DNA of 62,401 bases from the NCBI GenBank assembly GCA_035291545.1, contig DATDRW010000087.1:1-62401 (forward strand). The letters are read 5' to 3'. A program made the position numbers and the translations under genes. This DNA is from Acidimicrobiia bacterium (GTDB taxonomy: Bacteria; Actinomycetota; Acidimicrobiia; Spongiisociales; UBA11373). Below the pieces are notes generated by a model. The model did not search any database, was not told where the DNA came from, and saw only the letters and a program-made list of their open reading frames with translations. Positions 7,004-43,216 of the stretch are shown here, in pieces; position 1 is the first letter of the stretch; each line of letters begins with the position of its first letter.

Positions 7004-7020
7004 GGCGGGGGAGAGTAGGG

Positions 7021-7048
7021 ACCAGATACCAGATTCCAGACACCAGAT
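7021..7048. repeat. Heptanucleotide tandem array ACCAGAT x4 (third unit TCCAGAC) in a divergent promoter spacer
   Basis: Read directly: ACCAGAT ACCAGAT TCCAGAC ACCAGAT, preceded by GAGTAGGGA (7013-7021) and followed by GCCCGCTACCTT. It lies in the 66-nt spacer between the sixA-like start (7003) and the aminotransferase start (7070). Confidence 0.85.
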
Positions 7049-7069
7049 GCCCGCTACCTTGCGCCCGAC

Positions 7070-8257
7070 GTGACCTCACCCATCTCGCGCCGCATCGCCG
7101 CCATCTCCGACTCCGCGACGATGGCCATCACCGCCCGGGCGGCGGCGTTGCGGGCCGCCGGCCGCCCCGTCATCGGCTTCGGTGTCGGCGAACCGGACTT
7201 CCCCACCCCCGAGCACATCGTGGCCGCGGCGCAGCAAGCCGCCGCCGACCCGAGGGCACATCACTACTCGCCCGCCGCCGGGCTCCCCGAGTTGCGGGCG
7301 GCGGTGGCGGTCAAGACCCGGCGTGACTCGGGACTCGACTGCGGGCCGGAGAACGTGACGATCACGGTGGGAGCCAAGGGGGCGGTCTTCGGGACCTGTG
7401 CCGCGCTCCTCGACCCGGGCGACGAGGTGCTGGTGCCGACGCCCTACTGGGTCTCGTACCCGGAGATCGTCGCCCTCGCCGGCGCCGTGACCCGGCCGGT
7501 CCCCTCCACCATCGCCACCGGCTACAAGGTCTCGGTCGATGATCTCGAGGCGGCCCGCACCCCTCGCACCAAGATGCTCATCTTCGTCTCGCCGGGGAAC
7601 CCCACCGGTGCGGTGTACCGCCGCGACGAGGTCGCCGCGATCGGCCGCTGGGCCGCCCACCACGGCATCTGGGTGCTCACAGACGAGATCTACGAACACT
7701 TGGTATACGGGGATGCCGAGTTCTCCTCCCTGCCCGTCGAGGCCCCGGCGGCGCGCGAGCGCTGCGTCGTGGTCAACAGCGTGGCCAAGACCTACGCCAT
7801 GACGGGCTGGAGGGTCGGATGGCTGGTCGGGCCTCCCGCGGTTGCCGCTGCGGTGGGCCGCCTCCAGTCGCACTCCACGTCGAACGTGGCCAATGTCTCG
7901 CAACTCGCGGCGCTGGCTGCTCTCGAGGGTCCGATGGACCCGGTGTGGGCGATGCGGTCCGCATTCGACCGCCGCCGCAAGACCATGTACGGACTGTTGC
8001 AGGACATCCCCGGGGTCGAGGTGCGCGAACCCGAGGGCGCCATCTACGCCTTCCCGCGGGTCGCCCTGGGCCGGGCCCTGGGCGGAAGAACGCCGTCCAC
8101 GACCGTGGAACTCGCCGAGACACTCCTCGAGCTCGCCGAGATCGCCGTGGTCCCCGGCGAGGCCTTCGGTTCTCCCGGATCGCTCCGGCTCTCGTTCGCC
8201 CTGGGAGACGACGACCTCGTCACCGGTCTCGGCCGGTGGCGGGATCTCGCCGGCTAA
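7070..8257 (+). CDS. Class I PLP-dependent aminotransferase (aspartate aminotransferase-like)
   Basis: [18 protein letters not shown], and [15 protein letters not shown] (PLP-lysine motif); 395 aa; GTG start. Confidence 0.88.
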
Positions 8258-8688
8258 CCGGCGCCGCCGGACACGAGCACCTCGATCGCTCTCCGGTATC
8301 CGGCCACGCCCTCGCCGCTGATCGTCGCCCGGCACGCCGGCGCGACGACCGACTTCGCCCGCCACTCCTCGCGGGCTGAGATGTCGGAGATGTGGACCTC
8401 GACGGTGTCGATGGCAACGGCCTCGATGGCGTCGTGGATCGCGTACGAGTAGTGGGTGAGTGCTCCCGGGTTGATGATGATGCCGTCGAAGCGGCCGATG
8501 GCTTCGTGGAGGCGGTCGATGATGGCTCCCTCGTGGTTCGACTGGAAGACGGTCACCGTGCAGCCGAGCTCGGCGCCCCACTGCCGGCACAGCTCCTCGA
8601 GGTCGCCGAGCGTGGTTTGCCCGTAGACGTCCGGCCGGCGGGTGCCGAGCAGGTTGAGGTTGGGTCCGTTGACGACGAGCACTCGCAT
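8254..8688 (-). CDS. aroQ: Type II 3-dehydroquinate dehydratase
   Basis: [29 protein letters not shown] and EVHISD motifs; 144 aa. Confidence 0.93.
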
Positions 8689-8697
8689 GACCGCAGG

Positions 8698-9444
8698 CTA
8701 TCGGGAGGGGTCGTGTTCCGGGGCGAGGCGGTCGGCGAGGCGGAGGCAAGCCTCGTCGAGGACGCCTTCTTGGACCTCGTGGCCGGCCGCGGCCAGGGCG
8801 GCAACGAGCGCGGTCACGACCCGGTCCACACCGATCCCGGGGAGGGCGAGGTCGAGGGCGCCGGTTGCCTCGGGACGCCAGTCGTACTCCAGGGCACGGT
8901 ACGCCGGGAGCAGCGGGCGGTTCACCAGTTCCGGATCGGAGACGACGATCACCCCGCCGAGGTGGGCGGCACCCCGCACCAGGCGTTGCCCGACTCCCAT
9001 GACCTTGTGGATGCCTCCGAGGTTGACCGACCACTCGCCGGGGCAGTATTCCCCGGGCACCTCGCCGACGCGACCGTCGAGGCCGAGCGCGCGCAATGCC
9101 CCGACGACGAGGCCCGAGACGGTGCGAAACCGATCGCCGATCGTCTCGCGCGCCCGGGGCTCGGGCATCGCCCAGGAGAACGCGATCGTTCCCTCGTGGA
9201 ACACCGCGGCCCGTCCGCCGGCGAGACGCTCCACCGGCGCGAATCCGAGGGAAGAGACCGCCGCCACCGCCGCGCGGTATCCGGGGCGCACACGGTCTTG
9301 GCGCCCGAATGCGACCGACCGCTGCGGCGTCCACATGCGCAGGGTGGGGGGATCGTCACCGGCTGCGACCCGGTGCAGGATCGCCGACGAAATGGCGGTG
9401 TCCAGGGCCGGGGGATCGAAGCGGTCGGTGATCAGCCGCAGCAC
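8698..9444 (-). CDS. Lipoate-protein ligase family protein (BPL/LplA/LipB catalytic domain)
   Basis: PTLRMWTPQRSVAFGRQD and GIHKVMGVGQR (conserved Lys) are typical of LplA/LipM-like ligases. Confidence 0.75.
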   Translation of the reverse strand: MLRLITDRFDPPALDTAISSAILHRVAAGDDPPTLRMWTPQRSVAFGRQDRVRPGYRAAVAAVSSLGFAPVERLAGGRAAVFHEGTIAFSWAMPEPRARETIGDRFRTVSGLVVGALRALGLDGRVGEVPGEYCPGEWSVNLGGIHKVMGVGQRLVRGAAHLGGVIVVSDPELVNRPLLPAYRALEYDWRPEATGALDLALPGIGVDRVVTALVAALAAAGHEVQEGVLDEACLRLADRLAPEHDPSR

Positions 9445-9471
9445 CCGGCGAGGGTACCGGCACCGGAGAGA

Positions 9472-9858: not shown

Positions 9859-9968
9859 ACCGGTTCGACGGGTGGCGGGCCGGCTCCGGTTCCACGCCGC
9901 CGACAAATACCGAACCAGGTTGGGCACCCGTCCGACGATAATCGCTACACCGACCGGCGGAGGCCCCG

Positions 9969-10649
9969 GTGCAACGAGTCATCAGGATGATCGCGATGGC
10001 GCTCCTCGTCGCGTCGTGCGGTGATGCGTTGGGCGGTGTCGGTGACCTCTCCCACAGGATCGTCTACGGCGACGAGACCACCACGACGACGAGCCTCGCT
10101 CCGGCGCAGAGCCAGGTCCTGCGGCTCCGGGGGATCACCGACCTGGTTTGGTGGAACGACGGCATCGACTCCGACACCACCGGTCTGGACCGCGAGCCCA
10201 TGATCACGGCGGTGTGGCTCCGCGGCGACAAGATCAACCCGTTCGTCCAGGCCAGCCGGCGCGAGATCGCCACGGCGCTTCCCGGCATCGAGTTCCCCCA
10301 ATTGGCCCCCGAGACCGTGACCCACGTGTCGTCTCAGCTGCTCTACGACCAACTGACCGGGATTCTCGACGCCTCGACGGCTGCGGCTTTCGGGCTTTGG
10401 GCGGGGGAGCCCTACGACCTACCCCGGGCAGAAGGTCAGCTCGCCGTGCTGCGGGTCGGGCTGAAGACGTTCGAGGACGATGCCGAGGACGAGGTCTTCT
10501 CGTTCCGGGTCACCGACGGACGGGAGCTCACCTGGACGGAAGGGGGCTACGTCTACCAGCTGTTCTGCCGCACCGGAGTCAGCGAGGCGGCGTGCTTCGA
10601 GATGGCCGAGTCGACCATCCCGCTGTCGCTCATCGTGGCGCTTCCCTGA
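9969..10649 (+). CDS. Putative lipoprotein, unknown function
   Basis: N-terminus MQRVIRMIAMALLVASCGD (signal peptide plus lipobox). No family recognised. Confidence 0.6.
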   Translation: MQRVIRMIAMALLVASCGDALGGVGDLSHRIVYGDETTTTTSLAPAQSQVLRLRGITDLVWWNDGIDSDTTGLDREPMITAVWLRGDKINPFVQASRREIATALPGIEFPQLAPETVTHVSSQLLYDQLTGILDASTAAAFGLWAGEPYDLPRAEGQLAVLRVGLKTFEDDAEDEVFSFRVTDGRELTWTEGGYVYQLFCRTGVSEAACFEMAESTIPLSLIVALP

Positions 10650-10702: not shown

Positions 10703-12610
10703 GTGTTCCACCAGGGCAATTGGTGGTCCTACATCCAGTACGACGAGGAGCAGGATCGGCCGACAGTCGACCGGGCGCTGCTGCGCCGCGTCCTCGGGTA
10801 CGCCCAGCCCTACCGCGGCCTGCTTGCCGTGGTGATCGGGACGATCGTGGTGATCACGCTGATCTCGCTCGCGCCCCCGCTCCTCATGCGGGACCTGCTC
10901 GACACCGCCATTCCCACCGGTGACCTGGGCCGGGTGACGCTGCTCGGCATCGGCATGGTGGCGGTGCCCCTGCTCAGCGGTGTGGTCGGGGTGGTGCAGC
11001 GCTGGGCGTCGGCGAGGGCGGGTGAAGGGATGATCTTCGACCTCCGCACCGGCGTGTACGCCCACCTTCAGCGGATGTCGCTCGGTTTCTTCACCACCAC
11101 CCGGCCCGGCGAGCTCATGTCCCGACTCAACAGCGATGTCGTCGGCGCCCAGTCGGCGATCACCGGGACCCTCGTCTCCGTTGCGTCCAACGGCCTCGCG
11201 GTGGTGGCGACGATCGCCGTGATGCTCAGCCTCGAGTGGCGGTTGACGCTGGTGGCGGTGGCGATCCTGCCCCTCTTCATCTGGCCGAGCCGCCGCGTCG
11301 GCCGGGTACTGCGCAAGGTGACGCGCAATCAGATGCAGGCCAACGCCCGCATGAACTCGGCGATGAACGACACGCTCAACCTGAGCGGAGCGCTGCTGGT
11401 GAAGCTCTTCGGTCGCACCGCCGACGAAGACCGCCGATTCTCCGGCCACGCCGCCTCGGTGCGGAACCTCGGGGTGCGCCGCGCCCTCATCGGGAGGTGG
11501 TTCTTCATGGCGCTCGGCGTGGTGAGCGCCCTGGGCACCGCGCTCGTCTTCTGGCTTGGGGCGGTCCTCGTCATCCGGGGTGCCCTCACCATCGGGACCA
11601 TCGTCGCCCTGTCGGCCTACCTGAGCCAGTTGTACGGGCCGCTGTCCGCGCTCTCCAACACCCGCGTCGAGCTCGCCACCTCGCTGGTGTCGTTCGAGCG
11701 GGTCTTTGAGGTGCTCGATCTCCCTCGCGACGTGGGCGAACCCGACCCGGCGGCACACCTCGACGACGTCGCCGGGCGCGTGACCTTCGAGGACGTGGCC
11801 TTCGACTACCGGGCGGCGATGCCGTCCGGGCTGGAGCACGTGGAGCGGTTCTCCTGGTCCCACCCGCCCGAGGAGGACGCCGCCGCGGCGACGCCGGTCT
11901 CCGGGCGGGGAAGGGCGATCGAGCACCTCGATTTCGACGTGCAGCCGGGAACCCTGGTGGCCCTCGTGGGCCCGAGCGGAGCCGGGAAGACGACGGTCAC
12001 GTACCTCATCCCCCGTCTTTACGACACCACCGAAGGCCGGGTCCTCATCGACGGGCATGACGTCCGCACGCTCTCGTTCGAGACCATCGCCCGCAGCGTC
12101 GGGGTGGTCACCCAGGAGAACTACCTGTTCCACGACACGATCGCGGCGAATCTGCGCTACGCCCGTCCCGAGTCGACCCAGTCGGAACTGGAGGCGGCTG
12201 CCACGGCTGCGAACATCCACGACTTCGTCAGCGGGTTGCCGGAGGGATACGAGACCCTCGTGGGTGAGCGCGGTTACCGCCTTTCCGGAGGGGAGAAGCA
12301 ACGGGTCGCCATCGCCCGCGTGATCCTCAAGGATCCGCGGATCCTGGTGCTCGACGAAGCAACCTCCCACCTGGACGCCCGATCCGAGGCTCTGATCAAG
12401 GAGGCCCTGGAACGGGTGATGGCGGGGCGGACCTCATTCGTCATCGCCCACCGCCTGTCGACGGTGCTCGCCGCCGATCGGATCCTCGTCCTCGATCGGG
12501 GGCGTCTCGTCGAGGAAGGCCGTCACGACGAGCTCCTGGCTGCCGGAGGATTGTATGCCGAGCTATTCCGGACCCAGTTCGCCCCTGCATCGGCTCATCC
12601 CGGGGTGTGA
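10703..12610 (+). CDS. ABC exporter, fused permease/ATP-binding protein
   Basis: Six-helix transmembrane domain followed by GPSGAGKTT (Walker A), LSGGEKQR (signature) and ILVLDEATS (Walker B). GTG 10703 is preceded by GGGAGG. The upstream part of the 820-aa track ORF is Arg-rich and overlaps the lipoprotein gene. Confidence 0.9.
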   Translation: MFHQGNWWSYIQYDEEQDRPTVDRALLRRVLGYAQPYRGLLAVVIGTIVVITLISLAPPLLMRDLLDTAIPTGDLGRVTLLGIGMVAVPLLSGVVGVVQRWASARAGEGMIFDLRTGVYAHLQRMSLGFFTTTRPGELMSRLNSDVVGAQSAITGTLVSVASNGLAVVATIAVMLSLEWRLTLVAVAILPLFIWPSRRVGRVLRKVTRNQMQANARMNSAMNDTLNLSGALLVKLFGRTADEDRRFSGHAASVRNLGVRRALIGRWFFMALGVVSALGTALVFWLGAVLVIRGALTIGTIVALSAYLSQLYGPLSALSNTRVELATSLVSFERVFEVLDLPRDVGEPDPAAHLDDVAGRVTFEDVAFDYRAAMPSGLEHVERFSWSHPPEEDAAAATPVSGRGRAIEHLDFDVQPGTLVALVGPSGAGKTTVTYLIPRLYDTTEGRVLIDGHDVRTLSFETIARSVGVVTQENYLFHDTIAANLRYARPESTQSELEAAATAANIHDFVSGLPEGYETLVGERGYRLSGGEKQRVAIARVILKDPRILVLDEATSHLDARSEALIKEALERVMAGRTSFVIAHRLSTVLAADRILVLDRGRLVEEGRHDELLAAGGLYAELFRTQFAPASAHPGV

Positions 12611-15064: not shown

Positions 15065-15946
15065 TCAGGGGAATCTCTGCAGGAAGGCGACGAGGCGGCC
15101 CGCCACCTCGGGGCCGGCGTCCTCCTGGAGGAAGTGGCCCGCGCCGGCGACGACCTCGAGCTCGGCCGCTCCGGGGATGTGGTCGACGAACCGCCGGCCG
15201 GCCCGGAGGCTGAAGATGGGGTCGGTGTCGGAGAAGAGCACCTGCGCCGGGCCGCCCCACGATGCCAGCGCCTCCCGGGTCGACGCCATTTCGGCCGCAC
15301 CGGGGTCGGCCGGCGACCGGGGGACGATCAGGGGGAGCCGCCAGGCCCCCACCTTGTGCTCCCGCGTGGGGAAGGGAGCCTCGTATCCCGCGATCACCGA
15401 TCGGTCCCAGGGCCGGGCGGCGGCGTTGGCCATGATCATGCCGATCGGGAGATCAGGATTGGCCGCGACGAAGCCCCGCCAGGCATCGAAGGCAGGGTTG
15501 CCGCGCGTCCCTCCGGTGAACAGGCCGGTGTTGAGCAGCGACAGCCGCCGGAACCGCTGCGGGCGGCGCACCGCCACGGCGAGGCCGATGGGCCCTCCCC
15601 AGTCGTGGACGACCGCAGTGGCTCCATCGAGGTCGAGATGATCGACCAGTGCGAGCATGGCTTCGACCAGTCGGTCGTACGTGTAAAAGCCGGGATCAGA
15701 GGATTTGTCCGACTTTCCGAACCCCGGGTAGTCGGGCGCGATGGCGCGGAACCCCGAAGCCACCAGCGGTGGGATCACATGCCGGTAGAGGAACGACCAG
15801 GTCGGCTCGCCGTGGAACAGCACGACCGGAGGCCCGCTCCCCTCGTCGACGTAGTGGATTCGGAGGCCCTCCCAGACGAGGTGGTTCGGTGCGAAGGGAT
15901 AGTCGGGAAGGTCGGAAAAGCAGGCCTCGGGCGTGGTGAGGATCAC
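15065..15946 (-). CDS. Haloalkane dehalogenase-family alpha/beta hydrolase (DhlA-like)
   Basis: FSDLPDYPFAPNHL, HGEPTWSFLYR, GFGKSDK, VVHDWGGPIG (Asp nucleophile) and GAGHFLQED (His). The GTG start overlaps the upstream stop. Confidence 0.8.
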   Translation of the reverse strand: MILTTPEACFSDLPDYPFAPNHLVWEGLRIHYVDEGSGPPVVLFHGEPTWSFLYRHVIPPLVASGFRAIAPDYPGFGKSDKSSDPGFYTYDRLVEAMLALVDHLDLDGATAVVHDWGGPIGLAVAVRRPQRFRRLSLLNTGLFTGGTRGNPAFDAWRGFVAANPDLPIGMIMANAAARPWDRSVIAGYEAPFPTREHKVGAWRLPLIVPRSPADPGAAEMASTREALASWGGPAQVLFSDTDPIFSLRAGRRFVDHIPGAAELEVVAGAGHFLQEDAGPEVAGRLVAFLQRFP

Positions 15947-24677: not shown

Positions 24678-24713
24678 CGCACGGAATGTACCGAGAGAAG
24701 GCGACATGGGAAC

Positions 24714-25193
24714 ATGCCGCGCGTGCGCCGAACCATCCCGTTTCTCTACACGGGCGTGACCGTGGCTCTGTGGGTGGTGATCCTTCCCGGGGTGCTCATC
24801 CGCGACCAGCAGGGCGTCGGCGGGATTCCCTGGCGCCCTCTGCCGCTGGTGATCGCGGCCGCCGCCGTGCTTCTCGCCGGTACCGGCTTGGTCCACTACC
24901 CCGCTCGGCAGCTGGCGCAGCGGGGGATCGGTCTGTTCGGGATGACTCCCGGGCCGGTGCTGGTGACCGACGGCTGGTACCGGCGGGTGCGCAACCCGAT
25001 CGACGTGGGGACGACGCTGATCGCGCTCTCGCCGGTCGCCGCATTCGACGTGGCCTTGATGTGGGTGGTTCCGGGAGCTGCGCTGATCAACTTCACCGTC
25101 GGGGCCGGTCTCTACGAAGACCGGCGGCTGTTCGAGGGTTTCGGCGAGGAGTTCACCGGCTACCGGCGCCGGGTACCCAAGTGGATTCCGTGA
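24714..25193 (+). CDS. Membrane methyltransferase family protein (isoprenylcysteine carboxyl / phospholipid methyltransferase-like)
   Basis: 159 aa, about four hydrophobic helices, with LVTDGWYRRVRNPIDVG...LYEDRRLFEGFGEEFTGYRRRVPKWIP typical of ICMT/PEMT-like proteins. Confidence 0.7.
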   Translation: MPRVRRTIPFLYTGVTVALWVVILPGVLIRDQQGVGGIPWRPLPLVIAAAAVLLAGTGLVHYPARQLAQRGIGLFGMTPGPVLVTDGWYRRVRNPIDVGTTLIALSPVAAFDVALMWVVPGAALINFTVGAGLYEDRRLFEGFGEEFTGYRRRVPKWIP

Positions 25194-25197
25194 CCGC

Positions 25198-25225
25198 ATG
25201 GTCGATGGTCGGTCGACGGTCGACG
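25198..25225. repeat. Heptanucleotide tandem array ATGGTCG x2 + GTCGACG x2
   Basis: Read directly in the 39-nt convergent spacer between the stops at 25191-25193 and 25233-25235. Confidence 0.75.
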
Positions 25226-25232
25226 ATCAGCC

Positions 25233-30026: not shown

Positions 30027-30425
30027 GTGCAGGTCGAGCGAACCCACCAGGTGGCACAACGCGCCGTCGACCTGGCTCGAGCCGTCGCGTTCTACCGAGA
30101 CACGCTGGGTCTGCCCCTCATCGCCGTGTTCGATCCGCCGGGACTGGCGTTCTTCGACCTGGGAAATGTCCGGCTGCTCATCGAACGGGAGGCCCCGTCG
30201 GCCCTGCTGTACCTCGAGGTCGCCGACATCGAGGCGACGTATGCCGCTCTCGCCGCGTCCGGGGTGGAGACGGTGGATTCGCCCCACCTCATCTTCCGCG
30301 ACGATGCCGGCACCTTTGGACCCGCAGGCACCGGGGAATGGATGGCCTTCTTCCGCGACTCGGAGGGCAATCTCGTCGGGTTGGTGGAGCGTCGTCCTCC
30401 GAATTCGCAATCTTCAAGCGGGTAG
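30027..30425 (+). CDS. VOC (glyoxalase/bleomycin resistance/dioxygenase) family protein
   Basis: VDLARAVAFYRDTLGL..., FRDSEGNLVGLVE. GTG 30027 is preceded by GGAGG. The TAG stop lies inside the first unit of the downstream heptamer array. Confidence 0.75.
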   Translation: MQVERTHQVAQRAVDLARAVAFYRDTLGLPLIAVFDPPGLAFFDLGNVRLLIEREAPSALLYLEVADIEATYAALAASGVETVDSPHLIFRDDAGTFGPAGTGEWMAFFRDSEGNLVGLVERRPPNSQSSSG

Positions 30426-30489
30426 CGGGTAGCGGGTGACGGGTAACGGGCGACGGGCGTCGGGCGTCGGGTAACGGGTAACGGGCGAC
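30420..30489. repeat. Heptanucleotide tandem array GGGYRNC x10 (ten GGG tracts with 4-nt loops), filling a convergent spacer
   Basis: Read directly: GGGTAGC GGGTAGC GGGTGAC GGGTAAC GGGCGAC GGGCGTC GGGCGTC GGGTAAC GGGTAAC GGGCGAC. It contains the TAG stop of the VOC gene (30423-30425) and abuts the TAG stop (CTA 30489-30491) of the AAA+ gene. Confidence 0.92.
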
Positions 30490-31481
30490 TACCTGCCGAA
30501 GGGCGGTCCCTCGGGTCCGCGCCGCGCCACCGCGGACCACACCGTCTCGTAGTGGTCCTCGTCGAAGGGGTCGATGTGGCTCACCACGAACTCCTCCCAG
30601 GAGCGGCGCAGCGGATCGGCGTCGTCGGCGTACATCCACAGGCCGGCGGGGATCCGGTCGAGTATGGCGCGCAGGCTCATCGGCGTTCCCACCCGGGTGC
30701 GGGCGTCCCTCGAGGTGAAGGACTCGTTGACCTCGACGGCGAGCCGGGCGATGGTGGTGACGAAGGCCGCCTTCAGCTTGGGATACCGCCGGCCGAGCAT
30801 GGCCTCGATCTGGGTCACGTCGGGGAAGCGCTTCTCCCAGATCACCCAGCGGTCGGCGAACGCCTTGTTCAGGGTCTGGGTGCCTGCGTAGTCGCGCAGG
30901 TCCGTGGGGTTCATGGTTCCGAAAACACGGGTGTCGGGCCGGAGTTGCACGGTCTCTCCGGTGGGGAGATCGAGCGCCTGGTAGCGGTCGAGGAGCGCGT
31001 GCAGGGCGAACAGCGTTTCTGCCCCTGCCGCGTTGAGCTCGGACAGGTTGAGCAGCGCCGGGCCCCGCAGCGCCCGGGTGATGTCGCCGTCTTCCCATCG
31101 GCTCTCGGTTCCCCCCCTCCCGTCTCCATACAGCTTGACCGACCCGATCAGGGTGATGTCGCGCACCTCGCCGGTGAGCGGGATGCGGAAGTAGGGGAGG
31201 CGGAGCAGGGAGGCGAACTGCTCGAGGTCGTGGTCCTTGCCGGTGCCCATGTGCCCGCGCAGTGCCACGTGGAGGGGGGTGTCGGTCACCCTGGTGCGGC
31301 GCACCCGCTCCAGGGCGGCCAGCTTGTAGAGCATCCCCAGGTCGACATAGTGCGGGTCGGGCTCCGGGATCTTCCCCGAGCGCTGCACGAAGTCGGGGAG
31401 GTCGGCGGGCACGGAGAACGTGGTCAGCTCGATCGGCTTGCGCAGGCCGGCGGGGTCGGTGAAAGTGACGGAGTCAGGCAT
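30489..31481 (-). CDS. CobS-like AAA+ ATPase (AAA_5 / MoxR-CbbQ-CobS clade) with atypical Walker A and B
   Basis: Colinear with the CobS layout: IPEPDPHYVD, GHMGTGKDHDLEQFASLLRLPYFRIPL (Walker A with Asp after the Lys), ALLNLSELNAAGAETLFALHALLD (Walker B position reads SE, not DE), VFGTMNP (sensor 1), FADRWVIW. 330 aa. Confidence 0.8.
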   Translation of the reverse strand: MPDSVTFTDPAGLRKPIELTTFSVPADLPDFVQRSGKIPEPDPHYVDLGMLYKLAALERVRRTRVTDTPLHVALRGHMGTGKDHDLEQFASLLRLPYFRIPLTGEVRDITLIGSVKLYGDGRGGTESRWEDGDITRALRGPALLNLSELNAAGAETLFALHALLDRYQALDLPTGETVQLRPDTRVFGTMNPTDLRDYAGTQTLNKAFADRWVIWEKRFPDVTQIEAMLGRRYPKLKAAFVTTIARLAVEVNESFTSRDARTRVGTPMSLRAILDRIPAGLWMYADDADPLRRSWEEFVVSHIDPFDEDHYETVWSAVARRGPEGPPFGR

Positions 31482-33783: not shown

Positions 33784-35139
33784 ATGAGTCGGAGAATCAA
33801 CATCTTCCGGCCGCTGGGTGTGCTGCTGATCGTGCTGGCCCTCGTTGCCGTCGCCTGTGGCGACGACGACGCCGTGACCACGACGACCGGCGGCGGTGAC
33901 ACGTTCACCCCCGGTGCGCTTGGATATATCGAGGTTGCCCCGGGCGCCCCGCTCGAGATCCGTGCTCTGCAGTCGATCTCGGGCGATACGTCGTTCCTGG
34001 GTACCGACCAGGTCCGCGGCGTCGAACTCGCCATCGCCGACTACGGCGATGTTGCGGGGCACTCCGTGAGCCTGGGCACCGTCGAAGACGACCTGTGCTC
34101 GGCCGAGGGTGGCCAGGCGGGCGCGCAGAACATTCTGGCGCAGCTGGCTCCGATCGCGGGCACGGACAACGGCTTCACCGGCCCGCTCGGCGTGATCGGC
34201 ACCACCTGCTCGGGCGCGGCCCGTGCGGCGTTGCCGTTGCTCTCGGCGGCCGGATCGGTCCTCATCTCGGGTTCGAACACGGGGCCGTCGATGACGCAGA
34301 GCCCGTTCGGCACCGCCGGTGAGAACTACGCCCCCGGTTACTACCGGACCGCGCACAACGACCTGTTCCAGGGTGGTGCGGTGGCCCGGTTCGCCTACAA
34401 CGTCCTTGGTGTCCGCACGGTGGGCGCCATCCATGACGGCGATCCGTACACCGACGGGCTGGCTACGGCGTTCGCCGACGCCTTCACCGAGCTCGGTGGC
34501 ACGGTCTCGGTGTACACCGCGACGATCGCCGATCCCGGCGACACCGACAAGACCGCGGTCCTCACCGAGGTCGCTGCCGGTGCTCCCGAACTCGTCTTCT
34601 TCCCGATCTTCCAGCCCGCGGGTGACTTCATCATCCAGCAGGCGGGCGGGATCGCCGGGCTCGAAGACGTGATCTGGGTCGGTGCCGACGGCATCCTCGT
34701 GGATGACTTCCTGGCGATCCCCGAGACCGAGGGTATGTACTTCTCGGGTCCGGACCTTCGCTTCGGGACCAACACCTCGCTGACGGGTAAGTCGTACAAC
34801 GACTTCCTGGCCGACTACGAGGCCGCCTACGGCCTGACGCCGCCCGCAGCGTTCCATGCCCACACCTACGACGCCACGGTGCTGCTCTTGAGCACGATCG
34901 AGGCGATCGCATTCGAGGAGGCCGACGGCACCCTGAAGATCGACCGGCAGGCGTTGCGCGATGCGCTGACCGCCACGTCCGGGTTTGCAGGAGTGACCGG
35001 CACGCTGTCGTGCGACGCGTTTGGTGACTGTGCCTCGCAGACGATCTCGATCATCCACCATGAGGACCCGAGCGACATCGCGGCGAGCAAGGCCAACGTC
35101 GTCTACAGCGAAGCCGCTGGGGTGGCAGCCGCAGGCTGA
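33784..35139 (+). CDS. Branched-chain amino acid ABC transporter substrate-binding lipoprotein (LivJ/K-like)
   Basis: MSRRINIFRPLGVLLIVLALVAVACGDD (lipobox) plus a type I periplasmic binding fold pattern. GGAGGG lies 10 nt upstream of ATG 33784. Confidence 0.88.
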   Translation: MSRRINIFRPLGVLLIVLALVAVACGDDDAVTTTTGGGDTFTPGALGYIEVAPGAPLEIRALQSISGDTSFLGTDQVRGVELAIADYGDVAGHSVSLGTVEDDLCSAEGGQAGAQNILAQLAPIAGTDNGFTGPLGVIGTTCSGAARAALPLLSAAGSVLISGSNTGPSMTQSPFGTAGENYAPGYYRTAHNDLFQGGAVARFAYNVLGVRTVGAIHDGDPYTDGLATAFADAFTELGGTVSVYTATIADPGDTDKTAVLTEVAAGAPELVFFPIFQPAGDFIIQQAGGIAGLEDVIWVGADGILVDDFLAIPETEGMYFSGPDLRFGTNTSLTGKSYNDFLADYEAAYGLTPPAAFHAHTYDATVLLLSTIEAIAFEEADGTLKIDRQALRDALTATSGFAGVTGTLSCDAFGDCASQTISIIHHEDPSDIAASKANVVYSEAAGVAAAG

Positions 35140-35162
35140 GCCCATCGGATTCGATTCGGTGA

Positions 35163-35194
35163 GGGGAGGCCCGGCCATGGGGGCGGGCCTCCCC
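35163..35194 (+). terminator. Perfect 11-bp GC-rich stem-loop between the binding-protein and permease genes
   Basis: GGGGAGGCCCG (35163-35173), a 10-nt loop, CGGGCCTCCCC (35184-35194), then TT. Possibly an intra-operon attenuator or mRNA stabiliser. Confidence 0.45.
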
Positions 35195-35216
35195 TTCCCA
35201 TAACCCGGAAGACACC

Positions 35217-39231: not shown

Positions 39232-39956
39232 TGGCCGGAACCCCGGTTCTCCAGTTCCGCAACGTCGACACCCACTACGGACCGGTGCACGTCCTCAAGG
39301 ACGTCAACCTGGAGGTTCACGCCGGAGAGATCGTCTGCCTCCTCGGCGGCAATGCCTCCGGGAAGACGACGACGCTGAAGGCGGTCCTGGGAATGGTCAT
39401 CCCGTCTGCGGGTGACATCCTCCTCGACGGGGAGGTGGTGACCAACTGGTCGACGAGCGACCGGGTCCGCAAGGGCGTGTCGATGGTCCCGGAGAACCGC
39501 CGCCTGTTCAAGCGGATGACCGTGAAGGAAAACCTCGAGATCGGGGCGTTCCTGCGTGAAGACACCGAGAACCTCGAAGCCGATCTCGACCACATCTTCA
39601 CGTTGTTTCCCCGCGTCAAGGAGCGGATCAACCAGAAGGCGGGAACCCTCTCCGGTGGCGAGCAACAGATGGTGGCGGTCGGCCGGGCTCTGATGGCCCG
39701 CCCCAAGGTGCTGCTCATGGACGAGCCTTCGATGGGACTCGCCCCGGTGCTGGTGGCGCAGAACTTCGAGATCATCCAGCAGATCAACGAGGCGGGCACG
39801 ACGGTGTTCGTGGTCGAGCAGAACGCCAACATGGCGCTGTCGATCGCCGACCGCGGCTATGTGCTGCAGACCGGACAGATCGTGCTCGCCGACACCGCGC
39901 AGGGCCTGCTCGCCAATCCCGAGATGCGGACCGCGTACCTCGGCGAGGTGGAGTAG
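39231..39956 (+). CDS. livF: Branched-chain amino acid ABC transporter ATP-binding protein (LivF-like)
   Basis: GGNASGKTT, LSGGEQQM, LLMDEPSMGLAP. The ATG overlaps the livG stop (TGATG). Confidence 0.9.
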   Translation: MAGTPVLQFRNVDTHYGPVHVLKDVNLEVHAGEIVCLLGGNASGKTTTLKAVLGMVIPSAGDILLDGEVVTNWSTSDRVRKGVSMVPENRRLFKRMTVKENLEIGAFLREDTENLEADLDHIFTLFPRVKERINQKAGTLSGGEQQMVAVGRALMARPKVLLMDEPSMGLAPVLVAQNFEIIQQINEAGTTVFVVEQNANMALSIADRGYVLQTGQIVLADTAQGLLANPEMRTAYLGEVE

Positions 39957-39960
39957 GGAG

Positions 39961-40114
39961 GCTCCAGGCTCCAGGCACCAGGCACCAGTGCGGATCCGCA
40001 GCTGGTGTGGGTCTCTGCCATCTGCCATCTGCCATCCGTCATCTGCCATCTGTCATCTCCCTGGTACCTGACGCCTGGTGCCTCGTCTCTGGTCTCCGGT
40101 ACCATCCCCCGCCC
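39961..40114. repeat. Composite heptad element: 22 consecutive 7-nt registers filling the livF / M16-peptidase spacer
   Basis: GCTCCAG x2 + GCACCAG x2 (39961-39988); palindrome TGCGGATCCGCA (39989-40000); GCCATCT-type x6 (40017-40058); degenerate NCCTGGT-type x6 (40059-40100), which is the inverse of the first block. It is preceded by GAGTAGGGA (39951-39959). Confidence 0.9.
39983..40007 (+). terminator. Hairpin CACCAGTGCGGA / TCCGCA(G)CTGGTG just after livF
   Basis: 12-bp stem with one bulged G around the GGATCC centre, 27 nt after the livF stop. No U-tract. Confidence 0.35.
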
Positions 40115-41365
40115 ATGGATCACCAGCTCACCACGCTCCCCAACGGCCTACGGGTCATCACCGAGGCGATGCCTTCGGTGCGTTCGATCGCGGTCGGCGC
40201 CTGGGTGGACACCGGCAGCCGCGACGAGGTCGGCGTCGAGGCGGGTTGTTCCCACTTTCTCGAGCACCTCTTGTTCAAGGGGACCGAGGATCTCAGCGCC
40301 CAGGCCATCGCCGAGGGGTTCGACTCGGTGGGCGCCCGGAGCAACGCCTTCACCTCCAAGGAGTACACGTGTTTTTGGGCGCAACTGCGTGACGAGGACA
40401 TGCCGATGGGGTTGGGCCTCCTCGCCGAGATGATGCAGCGTCCGGCATTTCGCGCTGAGGAGATCGAATCGGAGCATCACGTGGTGCTCGAGGAGATCAA
40501 CATGAACGAGGACGACCCGTCCGACGTCGCCCACGACCAGTTCGCTCAGGCCCTTTGGGGTGAGCACGTACTCGCACTGCCCGTGCTCGGAACCCGGGAG
40601 AGCATCTCGGTGATGACCCGTGACGTCATCGCCGGCTACTGGCAGCGCCGTTACCACCCGGCCACCGTCGTCGTCGCCGCCAGCGGCAACCTGGAGCACT
40701 CGGCCGTCGTGGACCTCGTCTCCGATCAGTTTGGGGCGTGGACTGGCGGTACCGCCGATCACGAGTTCTCCAGGCCGAAGATCTCCTCGATCGTGAAGGT
40801 CGTCAGGCGCGACACCGAGCAGGCCCACCTCGTGATCGGGTCCGAGGCGCTCGATCGCGCCGATGAGCGTCGCTTCGCTTTCGGGATCCTCAACCACGTT
40901 CTCGGGGGCGGGATGTCGAGTCGTCTGTTCCGCGAGATCCGCGAGGAGCGGGGCCTCGCCTATGCGGTGTACTCGTTCCGCATGCCCTATGCCGACTCGG
41001 GCGCCTTCGGGGTGTACGTCGGTACCACTCCTCACCAGACGGCGCAGGTGCTGGAACTGGTCAGGGAGCAAATCGCCAAGGTGGTCGCCGAGGGCATCAC
41101 GCTCGACGAATTGGACCGCGCCAAGGGCTTCACCAAAGGGTCGGTGGCGCTTTCGATGGAGGACACCAACAGCCGCATGGTCCGTCTCGGCCGCCACGAG
41201 CTCACCGGCGTCGAGCATCTCTCCCTGGACGAGACCGTGGCGCGCATCGAGGCGGTGACACTGCAGGACGTCCACGGGGTGGCGACGGAAGTGCTCGGCG
41301 GTCCCTTCGTGATCGGAGCCGTCGGTCCGTTCGACGCGCTCGACCTGGAACGCTACGTGGCATGA
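40115..41365 (+). CDS. M16 family zinc peptidase (insulinase/PepR-like)
   Basis: LPNGLRVITE, an intact GCSHFLEHLLFKG (HxxEH), NAFTSKEYT. The ATG 40115 start avoids the heptad element. Confidence 0.88.
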   Translation: MDHQLTTLPNGLRVITEAMPSVRSIAVGAWVDTGSRDEVGVEAGCSHFLEHLLFKGTEDLSAQAIAEGFDSVGARSNAFTSKEYTCFWAQLRDEDMPMGLGLLAEMMQRPAFRAEEIESEHHVVLEEINMNEDDPSDVAHDQFAQALWGEHVLALPVLGTRESISVMTRDVIAGYWQRRYHPATVVVAASGNLEHSAVVDLVSDQFGAWTGGTADHEFSRPKISSIVKVVRRDTEQAHLVIGSEALDRADERRFAFGILNHVLGGGMSSRLFREIREERGLAYAVYSFRMPYADSGAFGVYVGTTPHQTAQVLELVREQIAKVVAEGITLDELDRAKGFTKGSVALSMEDTNSRMVRLGRHELTGVEHLSLDETVARIEAVTLQDVHGVATEVLGGPFVIGAVGPFDALDLERYVA

Positions 41366-42123
41366 CCCAGGTCGCCGTCTCCGGGGCGGGCGGGCGGATG
41401 GGCCGTCTCGTTGCCGAGACGGTCGCCGCCACGCCCGGCCTCACACTGGTGGCCGGGTTCGATCCGTCGCATGCCGGGGTGGCGGTGGGAGGCATCATGA
41501 TCTCCGCCGACCCCACGGTCGTGGGCGAGGCAGAGGTGGTCGTCGAGTTCACCACTCCCGCCGCGGTGCTGGGCAACCTGGCGACCTGGCGGGCTCACGG
41601 CGTGCATGCCGTGGTCGGCACCTCGGGGTTTGACGCGGCTCGTCTCGAGGCCGTGCGGACCGCATGGGGGAGCGGACCTCCGAACTGCCTGGTCGTCCCC
41701 AACTTCTCGATCGGAGCGGTGCTGATGATGCGGTTCGCAGAGATGGCGGCTCGTCACTTCTCGGCGTCCGAGATCATCGAACTGCACCACGATCGCAAGG
41801 TCGACGCGCCGTCCGGAACCGCTCTCAGCACCGCCGCCCGGATGCAGGCGGCGGGCGGGAGGCAGGAGCGACACGTCGAGTCGACCGAGCTGGTTCCCGG
41901 GGCACGGGGCGGAGACGCCGGACCGCGGGTGCACTCGGTGCGGCTTCCGGGACTGCTCGCCCACCAGGAGGTCATCCTTGGAAGCGAGGGCGAGACCCTC
42001 ACCATCCGCCACGACACCACCGACCGGATCTCCTTCATGCCGGGGGTGCTGCTGGCGGTGCGGTCCGTGGCCGCATTGCCGGATCCGGTGACGGTGGGGT
42101 TGGAGGGATTGCTGGGGCTCTGA
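41362..42123 (+). CDS. dapB: 4-hydroxy-tetrahydrodipicolinate reductase
   Basis: VAVSGAGGRMGR, and ELHHDRKVDAPSGTAL (DapB signature). The ATGA overlaps the upstream stop. Confidence 0.93.
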   Translation: MTQVAVSGAGGRMGRLVAETVAATPGLTLVAGFDPSHAGVAVGGIMISADPTVVGEAEVVVEFTTPAAVLGNLATWRAHGVHAVVGTSGFDAARLEAVRTAWGSGPPNCLVVPNFSIGAVLMMRFAEMAARHFSASEIIELHHDRKVDAPSGTALSTAARMQAAGGRQERHVESTELVPGARGGDAGPRVHSVRLPGLLAHQEVILGSEGETLTIRHDTTDRISFMPGVLLAVRSVAALPDPVTVGLEGLLGL

Positions 42124-42133
42124 GTCTTTCGTT

Positions 42134-42222
42134 CCCCGCCTCCCGCCTCCCGCCACCCGCCCGCAACCACCCGCCGTCTGGATCTGCGGGCAGCGGGAAG
42201 CGGGCAGCGGGAAGCGGGTGGC
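42134..42222. repeat. Inverted pair of heptamer arrays: NCCCGCC x5-6 (42134-42175) and GGGNRGC x5 (42188-42222)
   Basis: CCCCGCC TCCCGCC TCCCGCC ACCCGCC CGCAACC ACCCGCC ... GGGCAGC GGGAAGC GGGCAGC GGGAAGC GGGTGGC. The arms are imperfect reverse complements. The element fills the convergent spacer between the dapB stop and the thioredoxin-TPR stop. Confidence 0.88.
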
Positions 42223-42226
42223 CTCC

Positions 42227-43060
42227 TCAGAACAGCTCGTTCGCCAGGGCCCGGCGGTACACCACGGCGAGCGGGTGCTCCGGTCCGATCAGTCCGAACA
42301 CGTCGATCATCGCCCGGCGGGCGTGTTCGCGGAGCGGACCTCCCGTGCGCACCACTTCCAGCAGGTGATCGAGTCCCGGCTCGTACTCGCCTTTGGCAGC
42401 CAGCGCCTCTCCCAGCTCGAGGCGGGCGGCATGGTCGGCGGGATTCGCCGCGAGCCGGTGCTCCAGGGAGGTCAGATCGACCTCCGAGCGCGCGGCGACC
42501 CGGGCTGTCGCCTCGAGGCGCTCCACCTCGGCGGTGCGGGGGAGGCGCCCCAGGACGATGAGCGCCTCATCCGTCTCCTTGCGGGCGATGAGAAGAGAAG
42601 CGAGCGCGGTGGCGGCTTCGGTGTGATCGGGGACACCGGCGAGCACCTCGCGGTAGAGGGACTCGGCGCCGGCCTCATCACCCTCCAAAGACAGGTCACG
42701 CGCCCGATCCACCAGGAGGTCCCATCGCGAAGGGAGCATGGCATCGATCCAGGTGCGGACCTGTGTCTCCGGCTTGGCGCCGATGAAAGAAGCGACGGGC
42801 TGGCCGCCCTTGAAGGCGATGACGGTCGGAATCGACTGCACGCGGAACTGGGCTTGCAGCTCGCGGTTGGCGTCGACGTCGACCTTCACCAACACGAATC
42901 GTCCCTCGTAGTCGTCGGCGAGGCGCTCGAGGATGGGACCGAGCACCTTGCACGGCCCACACCACTCCGCCCAGAAGTCGACGACGACGGGGACCTCATG
43001 GCTGCGCTGCAGCACCTCCGGGCCGAACTGGCTCTGATCGATGTCTCTCACGTGGGGCAT
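42227..43060 (-). CDS. Thioredoxin domain plus TPR-like co-chaperone (YbbN/CnoX-like)
   Basis: VVVDFWAEWCGPCK (active CxxC) followed by a helical repeat C-terminal domain; 277 aa. Confidence 0.85.
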   Translation of the reverse strand: MPHVRDIDQSQFGPEVLQRSHEVPVVVDFWAEWCGPCKVLGPILERLADDYEGRFVLVKVDVDANRELQAQFRVQSIPTVIAFKGGQPVASFIGAKPETQVRTWIDAMLPSRWDLLVDRARDLSLEGDEAGAESLYREVLAGVPDHTEAATALASLLIARKETDEALIVLGRLPRTAEVERLEATARVAARSEVDLTSLEHRLAANPADHAARLELGEALAAKGEYEPGLDHLLEVVRTGGPLREHARRAMIDVFGLIGPEHPLAVVYRRALANELF

Positions 43061-43106
43061 TTCACCATCCAGAACGATACAAACGCGTTCGCCATTCCGA
43101 GACTAG

Positions 43107-43176
43107 GCAGCCGAGCTTGCAGCCTGCAGCCTGCAGCCCCGGTGTCGCGGCTGCACGCTGCAGGCTGCACGCTGGC
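43107..43176. repeat. Inverted pair of heptamer arrays: GCAGCCT-type x4 (43107-43139) and SGCTGCA x4 (43149-43176)
   Basis: GCAGCCG..GCAGCCT GCAGCCT GCAGCCC, spacer CGGTGTCGC, then GGCTGCA CGCTGCA GGCTGCA CGCTGGC. About 21 bp of the arms pair with one mismatch. It lies in the divergent spacer between the thioredoxin-TPR gene and dapA. Confidence 0.88.
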
Positions 43177-43216
43177 GACCCCCGAGTCCACTACCGTCAT
43201 GGTTACAGGAGGTTCC

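Follow-up and report, generated by a model that had tools for sequence, protein, structure and literature searches.

In cyanobacteria, 7-bp STRRs form hairpins whose function is unknown and which were proposed to stabilise or terminate transcripts (PMC2670836). Heptanucleotide repeats are also the commonest class in most repeat-rich prokaryote genomes, and the ten genomes with the most repeats of 5–11 nt units include three Actinobacteria (Mrazek, Guo and Shah 2007, as far as summarised in PMC4679880). To the extent of that summary, the statement of an earlier note on this DNA, that no equivalent was described in high-GC Gram-positives, is contradicted. The arrays presented here, found in a 62,401-nt stretch of Acidimicrobiia (Actinomycetota) DNA (the window), likewise have 7-nt units and form hairpins at three loci (loci 4–6). 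The analysis supports a genuine period-7, non-coding, STRR-like class, which adds an example to a known phenomenon, since this type of repeat is known from cyanobacteria and other bacteria. We consider, with a probability of about 0.7, that the arrays are slippage-generated, hypervariable heptanucleotide microsatellites of the STRR/LSSR type, filling unconstrained DNA between fixed signals.

A TRF search and inspection by eye revealed period-7 tandem arrays in six of six spacers, at the positions given in the earlier note. Six arrays of at least three units have period 7, against an expectation of 0.0 from 30 first-order Markov simulations, and none was observed in the window at periods 6 and 8–11. 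Identity at lag 7 ranges from 0.40 to 0.80 across the six spacers, compared with about 0.26 at other lags. In the window and 160 related Acidimicrobiia loci, TRF returned 93 rows for period 7, 1 for period 5, 15 for period 6, 1 for period 8 and 18 for period 9. None of the three grounds for rejection set in the earlier note applied: the period-7 excess is present, the arrays are not artefacts (see below), and they also occur at orthologous spacers of relatives, with a density per 100 kb of 16.7 where M16 peptidase identity is at least 85%, 4.3 at 70–80% and 2.4 at 60–69%. The repeats are a typical feature of one uncultured clade of Acidimicrobiia.

At least 15 independent metagenome assemblies from this species contain the arrays. 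In short-read MAGs, arrays are often found at contig ends or beside N gaps, as would be expected of assembly or sequencing artefacts. This explanation is refuted by the recovery of identical arrays from different samples, in ENA, JGI and Logan assemblies that are independent of one another, and by clean 7-nt differences between alleles. The placement of the arrays outside coding sequences was borne out as well: coding-like ORFs span 0 of 36 stringent period-7 arrays, compared with 5 of 8 period-6 arrays, and the flanking genes were fixed by Pfam matches and database gene calls. The arrays reach up to stop codons and −10-like boxes without entering them, with the exception of the first unit of array 3, which includes the glyoxalase stop codon and is the sole overlap with a CDS.

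Array 1 (7021–7048; imperfect ACCAGAT, x4.0 in TRF) belongs to a spacer of 66 nt, from which His_Phos_1 (minus strand, ATG at 7003) and an aminotransferase gene (plus strand, GTG at 7070) diverge. It sits between the two −10-like boxes (TANNNT) of this spacer, TACTCT (7012–7017, minus strand, 14 nt upstream of the ATG) and TACCTT (7055–7060, plus strand, 15 nt upstream of the GTG). Array 2 (25198–25225; lag-7 identity 0.66), the weakest of the six, was delimited by eye as ATGGTCG x2 plus GTCGACG x2, and TRF recognised 25210–25225 (x2.3). Its 39-nt convergent spacer separates a PEMT-like gene (plus strand, stop 25191–25193) from arginase (minus strand, stop 25233–25235), and the array is unchanged in L181. 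Array 3 (30420–30489, plus strand; (GGGYRNC) x10; lag-7 identity 0.80; TRF 30417–30489, CGGGYRN, about 10 units) exactly fills the convergent spacer from the glyoxalase stop (TAG, 30423–30425) to the stop of a MoxR-type AAA_5 gene (30489–30491, minus strand). Folding of loci 1–3 gave no hairpin, with z about 0.3–0.4 for array 1 and, for array 3, no Watson-Crick structure (z = +3.1). The plus strand of array 3 reads G3N4 x10, a G4 motif, and its G4-aware fold has −26.7 vs −20.9.

The other three loci had been noted to carry reverse-complementary arms, and this was confirmed by folding, with MFE from −58 to −87 kcal/mol and z from −3.0 to −6.8. Locus 4 (plus strand; whole spacer MFE −67.8 / −73.9, z −3.0 / −3.7) begins with outer arm A ((GGCWCCA) x4, 39961–39988; TRF 39959–39988, x4.3), 5 nt past the stop of an ABC-ATPase gene (TAG, 39954–39956). 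A short inner palindrome (TGCGGATCCGCA) with a linker (39989–40013) and an unpaired inner array, also reported by TRF ((CTGCCAT) x6.4, 40014–40058), are followed by outer arm B (40059–40099), delimited by eye as degenerate (NCCTGGT) x6. Arm B is reverse-complementary to arm A and pairs with 39961–39988 in the MFE structure. The −10-like box TACCAT (40100–40105, plus strand), 15 nt before the ATG of the M16 peptidase gene (40115), is kept as GGTACCATC in relatives, whether or not they have arrays. Locus 5 (MFE −57.7 / −69.3, z −3.3 / −4.3) occupies the spacer on which DapB (stop TGA, 42121–42123) and Trx-TPR (minus strand, stop 42227–42229) converge. Its arm A ((NCCCGCC) x5–6, 42134–42177; TRF 42135–42161) is largely complementary to arm B ((GCGGGMA) x5, 42186–42222; TRF 42186–42218). 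Locus 6 (MFE −73.0 / −86.5, z −5.1 / −6.8) is in the spacer from which Trx-TPR (minus strand, ATG 43060) and DapA (plus strand, ATG 43217) diverge, and is formed by arm A ((GCAGCCT) x3.6, 43107–43138; TRF 43114–43138) and its reverse complement, arm B ((SGCTGCA) x3.6, 43150–43176; TRF 43150–43174). The dapA −10-like box TACCGT (43192–43197, plus strand) is kept as ACTACCGT in L001, L002, L004, L008 and L030 and as CTACCGT in L020, and ACTACCGT is conserved even where relatives have no arrays.

The recurring strings beside the arrays, listed in the earlier note, are not a shared motif or boundary of the element but stop codons and TANNNT −10-like boxes of leaderless-type promoters. The string GAGTAGGGA has exactly two copies in the window and, with one mismatch allowed, 10 vs 8.9 expected. 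At 7013–7021 it is the reverse complement of the TACTCT box of the minus-strand His_Phos_1, whose CATGGCGGG..GAGTGTAGGGAC arrangement is also present in L003, L011 and L081, while GAGTAG at 39951 consists of a Glu and a stop codon. CTACC belongs to the −10-like boxes of the aminotransferase gene and dapA at 7054 and 43191, respectively, and at 25233 and 30489 it contains, in reverse complement, the TAG stops of genes on the minus strand.

It is possible, with a probability well short of even, that the arrays are selected structural elements, in which inverted arrays work as factor-independent terminators, mRNA 3′-end stabilisers or insulators that separate closely packed genes; transcript stabilisation and termination were proposed for the cyanobacterial hairpins (PMC2670836). 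Single-arm arrays would then be decayed or nascent forms, or G-quadruplex variants, as the G4 motif of array 3 suggests, or C-rich (Rho-loading) ones. Consistent with this explanation, the hairpins begin 0–10 nt past stop codons and, at locus 4, the paired outer arms are invariant between strains while the unpaired inner array varies. In the window, L030, L004, L005, L081 and L082, the convergent DapB–Trx spacer contains a heptamer hairpin (z from −6 to −15 in the window, L005 and L030); the hairpin of L002 is shorter, and L001 has only a short array. The sequences of these hairpins are unrelated, so the structure is conserved and the sequence is not; however, in the more distant L008 and L020 this junction is a minimal spacer of about 12–18 nt with no hairpin. 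Arrays are also enriched in convergent spacers (10/78 vs 14/442 other spacers; odds ratio 4.5, p = 0.0011; gene calls of the relatives from a crude GC3-based caller), but this is equally explicable because convergent spacers have no promoter to protect. Moreover, the explanation leaves the periodicity unaccounted for, since a hairpin does not need a stem with a 7-nt period. The terminator idea is weak in itself: no U-tracts follow the hairpins, significant structure is absent from 24 of the 28 window spacers, most gene 3′ ends included, and one of the hairpins, locus 6, has a divergent promoter on either side. Stability is no greater for the sense than for the antisense strand, and thus there is no G-U wobble signature of selection at the RNA level.

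The reading of the arrays as slippage-generated microsatellites is consistent with their variation between strains. The predicted slipped-strand differences in copy number were seen in array 3 and in the inner array of locus 4. Array 3 has 9 or 10 units among 11 assemblies, and the inner array of locus 4 has 6 units in the window and L167, 7 in eight assemblies and about 3 in L163, with arm A constant in 10 assemblies. Arm B of locus 5 presents two population haplotypes, with a 4-nt indel and SNPs in 7 of 8 other assemblies, and locus 6 has just two SNP columns among six assemblies. All internal indels in 9.2 kb of ten assemblies, leaving out one misaligned contig end, fall within array-bearing spacers. 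SNP columns make up 5.8% of arrays, 0.9% of coding DNA and 1.4% of other intergenic DNA, so that SNP density in arrays is about six times that of coding DNA. The variation is confined to the longer arrays; the short arrays 1 and 2 are constant.

In Haemophilus influenzae, 7-bp repeats upstream of hmw1A and hmw2A cause phase variation, and a similar contingency role, in which unit number would alter promoter geometry and switch neighbouring genes, could be imagined from the differences in unit number and from the position of arrays 1 and 6 between divergent promoters. This role, suggested in the earlier note, found no support and is largely disfavoured as very improbable. Array 1, embedded between two promoters, is identical in seven other conspecific assemblies, locus 6 varies by SNPs only, and the polymorphic arrays (array 3 and the inner array of locus 4) are not between a −10 box and a start codon or −35. 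In addition, arrays are commonest in convergent spacers, and the genes beside them have housekeeping roles (dapA, dapB, aminotransferase, arginase) instead of surface or variable ones.

The claim that the unit differs at each locus holds inside the window but not across relatives, in which the unit families CGGG-YRN, CAGAT-NN and CAGTC-NN recur. The 89 unique arrays comprise 67 distinct canonical units, with different units at orthologous spacers of different species and homogenised units within one array. A CGGG core is present in 27% of units (13% expected at random) and a CAG/CTG core in 45% (25% expected). Whole arm-loop-arm composites recur within one genome: in L017, 11281–11402 and 15183–15294 have both units and a similar loop in common, and in L030 the spacers of loci 4 and 5 have both arms in common. 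These recurring cores and composites hint at dispersal or sequence-dependent selection beyond local birth. They could be accounted for by dispersed mobile or copy-pasted cassettes (REP/BIME- or MITE-like) with incidental heptamer stems, spread by a hairpin-recognising enzyme such as a RAYT/IS200-type Y1 transposase or by gene conversion; unit families common to different species at non-orthologous spacers and the REP-like placement after stop codons agree with this. A whole cassette is also replaced between L081 and L082, whose flanks are 97–98% identical, but donor-like SNPs in the adjoining coding sequence make this swap fit ordinary homologous recombination. We consider such cassettes rather unlikely: the three hairpins of the window have no common sequence, neither terminal inverted repeats nor target-site duplications nor conserved flanks were found, and the units are far more diverse than those of any REP family.

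For slippage-generated microsatellites, we propose that an array would originate when an arbitrary 7-mer of the local sequence is duplicated in tandem, and would grow or shrink by replication slippage. In Actinobacteria slippage may go uncorrected, because the NucS-type mismatch repair does not fix indels (PMC7015689). Arrays would persist only where an indel that is not a multiple of three does no harm, and would spread between lineages by homologous recombination. Adjacent arrays have complementary units in 10 of 27 pairs across relatives, vs 3% of random pairs, and direct units in 0 of 27; the copy numbers of inverted arms agree within about one unit. A second, inverted array with matched copy number may arise by fold-back or template-switch copying, or by selection for pairing, and would lead to the long hairpins just downstream of stop codons. 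On our reading, most arrays are tolerated filler, and the hairpin subclass may act on transcripts as a putative U-tract-less terminator, 3′-end stabiliser or convergent-gene insulator.

The strict 7-nt register, kept despite the free unit sequence, would also be expected if the arrays were platforms bound by a protein whose footprint is 7 nt, on DNA or on single-stranded nucleic acid (e.g., a cold-shock-domain protein), for which the register and not the sequence matters. CspB is described, for TAACTGA repeats, as binding heptamer repeats at one protein per unit and with weak specificity for sequence (PMC4679880), and the modest enrichment of CAG and CGGG cores points in the same direction. 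This is quite improbable, given that it has no candidate protein, that the diversity of units equals that of random local sequence (GC 0.62, vs 0.66 for the loci), that half of the arrays are held in double-stranded hairpins and that the SNP density in arrays argues against sequence constraint. As to the register itself, purely neutral slippage predicts no sharp preference for 7 over 5, 8 or 10, and the one idea in print relates the 7 nt to the length of DNA that the polymerase holds in slippage (PMC4679880).

Six intergenic spacers of the window (sp1 to sp6, or loci 1 to 6, numbered by position) carry tandem arrays with a period of seven nucleotides. Direct reading and Tandem Repeats Finder (TRF) placed such an array at every position for which the earlier note had claimed one. 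Locus 1 holds four copies of ACCAGAT (7021–7048); locus 2 holds two copies of ATGGTCG and two of GTCGACG, inside which TRF reported 25210–25225; and locus 3 holds about ten units of GGGYRNC (30417–30489). Two arrays each are found at locus 4 (39959–39988 and 40014–40058), locus 5 (42135–42161 and 42186–42218) and locus 6 (43114–43138 and 43150–43174). At all six loci the period-7 copies found by TRF run head to tail, with 2.3 to 8.1 copies per array. Locus 2, with its two plus two units, is weak alone and credible only as a member of the set.

With a stricter detector, six period-7 arrays of at least three units were observed in the window, 30 first-order Markov simulations of it yielded 0.0, and no array of this length was detected in the window for period 6 or periods 8–11. 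The self-identity at lag 7 reaches 0.40–0.80 in exactly these six spacers and is about 0.26 at other lags, and the arrays occupy about one sixth of the approximately 2.4 kb of intergenic DNA in the window. The same excess was seen in related Acidimicrobiia loci. The non-redundant TRF arrays of the window and 80 genome loci (1.27 Mb) number 56 for period 7, and 1, 8, 0 and 11 for periods 5, 6, 8 and 9, respectively; when 80 metagenome loci were added (161 sequences), the TRF rows numbered 93 for period 7, and 1, 15, 1 and 18 for the same other periods. Among 89 unique arrays, 67 distinct canonical units were counted. A scan of the whole window with Rfam at gathering thresholds gave no match, so the arrays do not belong to a known RNA family. 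Another tandem repeat, truncated by the window start, lies at 2–209; it is coding, with about eight copies of a unit of 21 nt, or of 45 nt in another reading, and encodes in plus frame 0 a Thr/Pro-rich seven-residue repeat (TTPTTVP-like). It lacks an inner period of 7 nt and has nothing to do with the non-coding heptamers.

The arrays had been described as lying outside coding DNA, and this holds beyond the window: in the window and 80 relatives, a coding-like ORF spans none of 36 stringent period-7 arrays, and 5 of 8 period-6 arrays. According to Pfam and database gene calls, sp1 is divergent, between a His_Phos_1 gene and an aminotransferase; sp2 is convergent, between a PEMT-like gene and an arginase; sp3 is convergent, between a glyoxalase and a MoxR-type AAA_5 gene; sp4 is co-directional, leading from an ABC ATPase to an M16 peptidase; sp5 is convergent, between DapB and a thioredoxin-TPR protein; and sp6 is divergent, between the latter and DapA. 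Arrays were present in 10 of 78 convergent spacers versus 14 of 442 others (odds ratio 4.5, p = 0.0011). A reading of sp2 as intercistronic DNA ahead of an ORF of 1630 aa (20307–25199) was rejected, since the Lhr helicase starts at about 24677; sp2 is convergent because the PEMT-like plus-strand gene ends at 25193. In the region 24678–25232, the longest ORF of this Lhr-type helicase over-extends, as judged from database gene calls and Pfam. The PEMT-like gene (159 aa, 24714–25193) lies on the strand opposite to the helicase, and its Pfam score is below the family gathering cut-off.

About 17 of the 35 window genes that have an upstream spacer carry a TANNNT hexamer 12–15 nt 5′ of the start codon and no Shine-Dalgarno sequence, and hexamers at such a distance are a signature of leaderless-type actinobacterial promoters. 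This pattern suggests that leaderless transcripts dominate in the source organism. Examples are found at 7055–7060, 40100–40105, 48068–48073 and 52889–52894. These signals explain the recurring flanks of the earlier note, and a reading of them as boundaries of an element was rejected. The string GAGTAGGGA at 7013 represents the His_Phos_1 -10 box in reverse complement, and GAGTAG at 39951 combines a Glu codon with a stop codon; CTACC falls within -10 boxes at 7054 and 43191 and contains reverse-complemented TAG stops at 25233 and 30489. As a shared motif, GAGTAGGGA with at most one mismatch gave 10 matches versus 8.9 expected, a chance frequency. In addition, the -10 boxes of dapA (ACTACCGT) and of the M16 gene (GGTACCATC) are conserved across the family, whether or not a relative has arrays. 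Since the flanks are -10 boxes and stop codons, the arrays take up the stretch from one fixed signal to the next and end there.

The M16 peptidase adjoining locus 4 matched only MAGs of Acidimicrobiia or Actinomycetota, the best with 92% amino-acid identity, and metagenome contigs reached up to 89%. Scans of genomes and metagenomes with this protein found no relative above 92% identity, and conspecific contigs were obtained solely through exact-protein look-ups. The arrays recur in all of these conspecific contigs, which stem from numerous assemblies made independently of one another (ENA, JGI and Logan), and they are not assembly artefacts. Heptamer arrays evidently break short-read assemblies. 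Several of them sit at true contig ends, as in L001 (10718–10784), L003 (5577–5636), L016 (2141–2172), L017 (17884–17915) and L057 (58–126), all related loci, or beside a run of N at a scaffold gap (L030, 400–480), and short-read MAGs therefore under-count them.

Comparison of the conspecific assemblies revealed variation in unit number: sp3 comes in versions of 9 and 10 units and the inner CTGCCAT array of sp4 in versions of about 3, 6 and 7. In one of its arms sp5 presents two haplotypes. All internal indels in 9.2 kb of 10 assemblies fall in array-bearing spacers, one misaligned contig end excepted, and SNP columns make up 5.8% of arrays, 0.9% of coding DNA and 1.4% of other intergenic DNA. 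The short arrays of sp1 (compared in seven assemblies) and sp2 showed no variation. The polymorphic arrays sit in a convergent spacer (sp3) and in a hairpin loop upstream of a -10 box (sp4). A phase-variable contingency locus was considered and is largely disfavoured, since the variable arrays lie outside positions of frame or promoter spacing and the promoter-embedded sp1 is invariant. A known case is that of hmw1A and hmw2A of Haemophilus influenzae, a host-adapted pathogen, in which 7-bp repeats in the upstream promoter tune adhesin expression. The arrays resemble it in the 7-bp unit, the slippage-type polymorphism of unit number and the non-coding location, but here the variable arrays are flanked by housekeeping genes.

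Period 7 is a property of the clade. The density of arrays is 16.7 per 100 kb in relatives with M16 identity of at least 85%, 4.3 at 70–80% and 2.4 at 60–69%. Orthologous spacers in other species bear arrays of other units (sp4, sp5 and sp6); at sp4 the window has GGCWCCA and CTGCCAT, and the related loci have CAGTCNT (L030, L002 and L004), CGCCCGT (L005), TTCTCGT and TGCGAAT (L008) or CAGATCT (L083). In the more distant L008 and L020 the sp5 junction has a minimal spacer. Two metagenome contigs, L081 and L082, are 97–98% identical over 7.2 kb, yet their sp5 cassettes (arm-loop-arm composites) are unrelated, one being of ACCCGCG type (116 nt, L081 5010–5125) and the other of GAGTTCA type (75 nt, L082 5010–5084). 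The L082 cassette is similar to that of L005, a locus with a flank identity of only about 80%, and the last 22 nt of dapB in L082 contain four L005-like SNPs. The simplest reading of the difference is a cassette swap by homologous recombination, and L082 seems to carry a recombination tract from another lineage with the spacer between dapB and the thioredoxin gene at its centre. Heptamer hairpins can also exist as paralogous copies within one genome: two sites of L017 that are 4 kb apart (11281–11402 and 15183–15294) have in common the composite (CAGATYT)n, a similar loop and (YGATGTC)n, and two sites of L030, corresponding to sp4 and sp5 (9908–9980 and 12009–12103), have both arms in common.

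Long hairpins had been anticipated at three loci, and folding bore this out at loci 4, 5 and 6, with minimum free energies (MFE) of -58 to -87 kcal/mol and z-scores of -3.0 to -6.8. No hairpin fold was found at loci 1 and 2, and locus 3 is less structured than its shuffles (z +3.1). The latter, as (G3N4)x10, has predicted G-quadruplex potential; G-runs or G-quadruplexes as a general property of the arrays were rejected, since the CGGG core alone is enriched, by about twofold, and a clean motif occurs in sp3 only. Across all loci, units of adjacent arrays are reverse-complementary at six or more of seven positions in 10 of 27 pairs versus 3% of random pairs, with no direct pair among the 27, and the copy numbers of the two arms are equal within about one unit.

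A stable G+C-rich hairpin lies just 3′ of a stop codon at loci 4 and 5, as an intrinsic terminator would require; loci 1–3 are without hairpins. Against a simple terminator reading, the hairpin of locus 6 sits between divergent promoters and start codons, and significant structure was found in just 4 of 28 window spacers, three of them heptamer hairpins. Furthermore, a terminator scan of 39800–43400 found no U/T tract 3′ of a stem and no terminator-like site at any array, and in co-directional spacers the sense strand is not stabler than the antisense, with no consistent asymmetry of the kind that G-U wobble under RNA-level selection would leave. Terminators without U have been reported in Actinobacteria, so that the absence of U-tracts lowers only the claim of a canonical terminator. 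The hairpin subclass may have a putative role at transcript ends. The other strongly structured spacer of the window (35097–35216) holds a non-heptamer hairpin, GGGGAGGCCCGGCC..GGGCGGGCCTCCCC, with its stem at about 35160–35200 (MFE -66.9, z -4.1); it is divergent and precedes a gene whose start lies at 35217.

The hairpins recall the REP/BIME elements of proteobacteria, for which roles in mRNA stabilisation or termination have been proposed, in their position 3′ of stop codons, in spacers of both the tandem and the convergent kind, their species-specific sequence and their dispersed copies within a genome, as in L017 and L030. REP elements are a single conserved imperfect palindrome of about 20–40 nt, have no internal tandem periodicity and are associated with RAYT transposases, whereas the stems here are tandem 7-mers. 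A single conserved palindrome was rejected, since the three window hairpins share no sequence, units are as many as 67 in 89 arrays, and recurrence is only pairwise.

The arrays are STRR/LSSR-type heptanucleotide microsatellites, a known kind of repeat in a lineage in which it was undescribed before; a literature search on Acidimicrobiia and heptamer repeats found no paper linking the two. Heptanucleotide repeats have been known from scattered bacterial phyla since 1990 (STRR). The cyanobacterial units, which Mazel and coworkers are said to have described in that year, are reportedly CCCCAGT (STRR1), TTGGTCA (STRR2) and CAACAGT (STRR3); in any rotation, no run of at least two of them was found in the window, and among the related loci only L057 has a CAACAGT-type array. 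Like STRRs, the arrays consist of tandem 7-bp intergenic units with several unit families per genome. They differ in the phylum, the genome having 70% GC and its closest relatives all being Acidimicrobiia or Actinomycetota MAGs, in a far higher diversity of units, and in having no tie to filamentous or heterocystous biology. As to the STRR trait of one unit at many loci of a genome, units differ among the six window loci, yet composites recur in L017 and L030 and unit cores recur across species. Both the arrays and the STRRs can fold into hairpins close to the 3′ ends of genes or in the DNA separating them, with cyanobacterial cases at hupS-hupL and upstream of hoxW, and the function of STRRs is given as unknown (PMC2670836).

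As summarised in PMC4679880, Mrazek, Guo and Shah (2007, PNAS 104:8472) showed heptanucleotides to be the dominant class of long microsatellites (LSSR) and the commonest one in most LSSR-rich genomes, counted three Actinobacteria among the ten genomes richest in repeats of 5–11 nt units, and proposed as generator slippage with a 7-nt polymerase contact. By that summary, LSSRs and the present arrays have in common tandem units of 5–11 nt with 7 dominant, a length beyond what chance allows, exclusion from coding DNA of units that are not a multiple of three, slippage as the proposed generator and a scattered phylogenetic distribution that includes Actinobacteria. The arrays likewise show a tandem unit of 1–11 nt, an excess over composition and a slippage-consistent instability of unit number. 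Uncultured Acidimicrobiia were not among the genomes available in 2007; matched-arm inverted hairpins, cassette swap and population polymorphism of units are documented here for this clade, LSSRs being represented by the summary.

Other heptamer families are the TAACTGA repeats of marine Beggiatoaceae, cyanobacteria and Bacteroidetes (PMC4679880) and the GGACCGG x4 and MTYCTGA x5 elements of Geobacter metallireducens (PMC2700814). These also form short 7-nt tandem runs with other heptamers mixed into the same spacers, and their suspected post-transcriptional or regulatory roles are unproven; TAACTGA and MTYCTGA are mostly intergenic and often beside start or stop codons, and GGACCGG also occurs inside genes. 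Each family has one defined unit at tens to hundreds of loci, whereas here the unit changes by locus, and recurrence is limited to loose cores (CGGG, CAG). In the window and the related loci, none of the three units was found.

A mutational account of the arrays is most likely. Slippage would generate and vary them, inverted duplication and recombination would contribute, and purifying selection would restrict them to spacer DNA free of constraint. In Actinobacteria, mismatch repair of the NucS type leaves indels uncorrected (PMC7015689), and such a background, putative for the source organism, is plausibly permissive for arrays. It appears improbable to us that the 7-nt register reflects, in place of a passive slippage bias, a lineage-specific mechanism (a property of the replicase or repair, or the 7-nt footprint of some protein or RNP) that builds matched-arm 'heptad-stem' hairpin cassettes, exchanged between genomes, as the main transcript-end or insulator devices of compact genomes with leaderless transcripts. 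The real novelty would lie in the reason for this register; the current picture of such repeats is unchanged by the finding. The clade is a high-GC, array-dense lineage (about 17 arrays per 100 kb of DNA sampled) that allows cross-species comparison at orthologous spacers, with gain and loss of units visible in natural populations and a statistically clear hairpin subclass, and can thus be used comparatively to tell whether mutation or selection explains such repeats. The arrays could also be strain markers (MLVA-type) for this uncultured group.

Different species share loose unit cores at spacers that are not orthologous. A CAG/CTG core is present in 45% of units versus 25% of random ones and a CGGG core in 27% versus 13%, counts that are inflated by paired arms and orthologues. 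Stop codons, as expected under the idea of a three-frame stop, are not enriched in the units (37% versus 31% random). The CAG(T) core, common in units outside the CGGG-YRN family, is likewise part of STRR1 and STRR3 of cyanobacteria, of Geobacter MTYCTGA and, read as its reverse complement, of Beggiatoa TAACTGA. With the cores at about twofold over random, this could be a coincidence. If the lineage-specific mechanism were true, the recurring CAG(T) and CGGG cores would point to a heptamer mechanism shared across phyla. The recurring cores are a lead, not a finding, toward dispersal or a weak sequence preference. Members of a CGGG-YRN family (CGGGTAG, CGGGCGA, CGGGTAA and others) are located in the window at 30420–30489 and 42186–42222, in sp5 and sp6 of L081, in L004 at 4934–4958 and in sp6 of L002.
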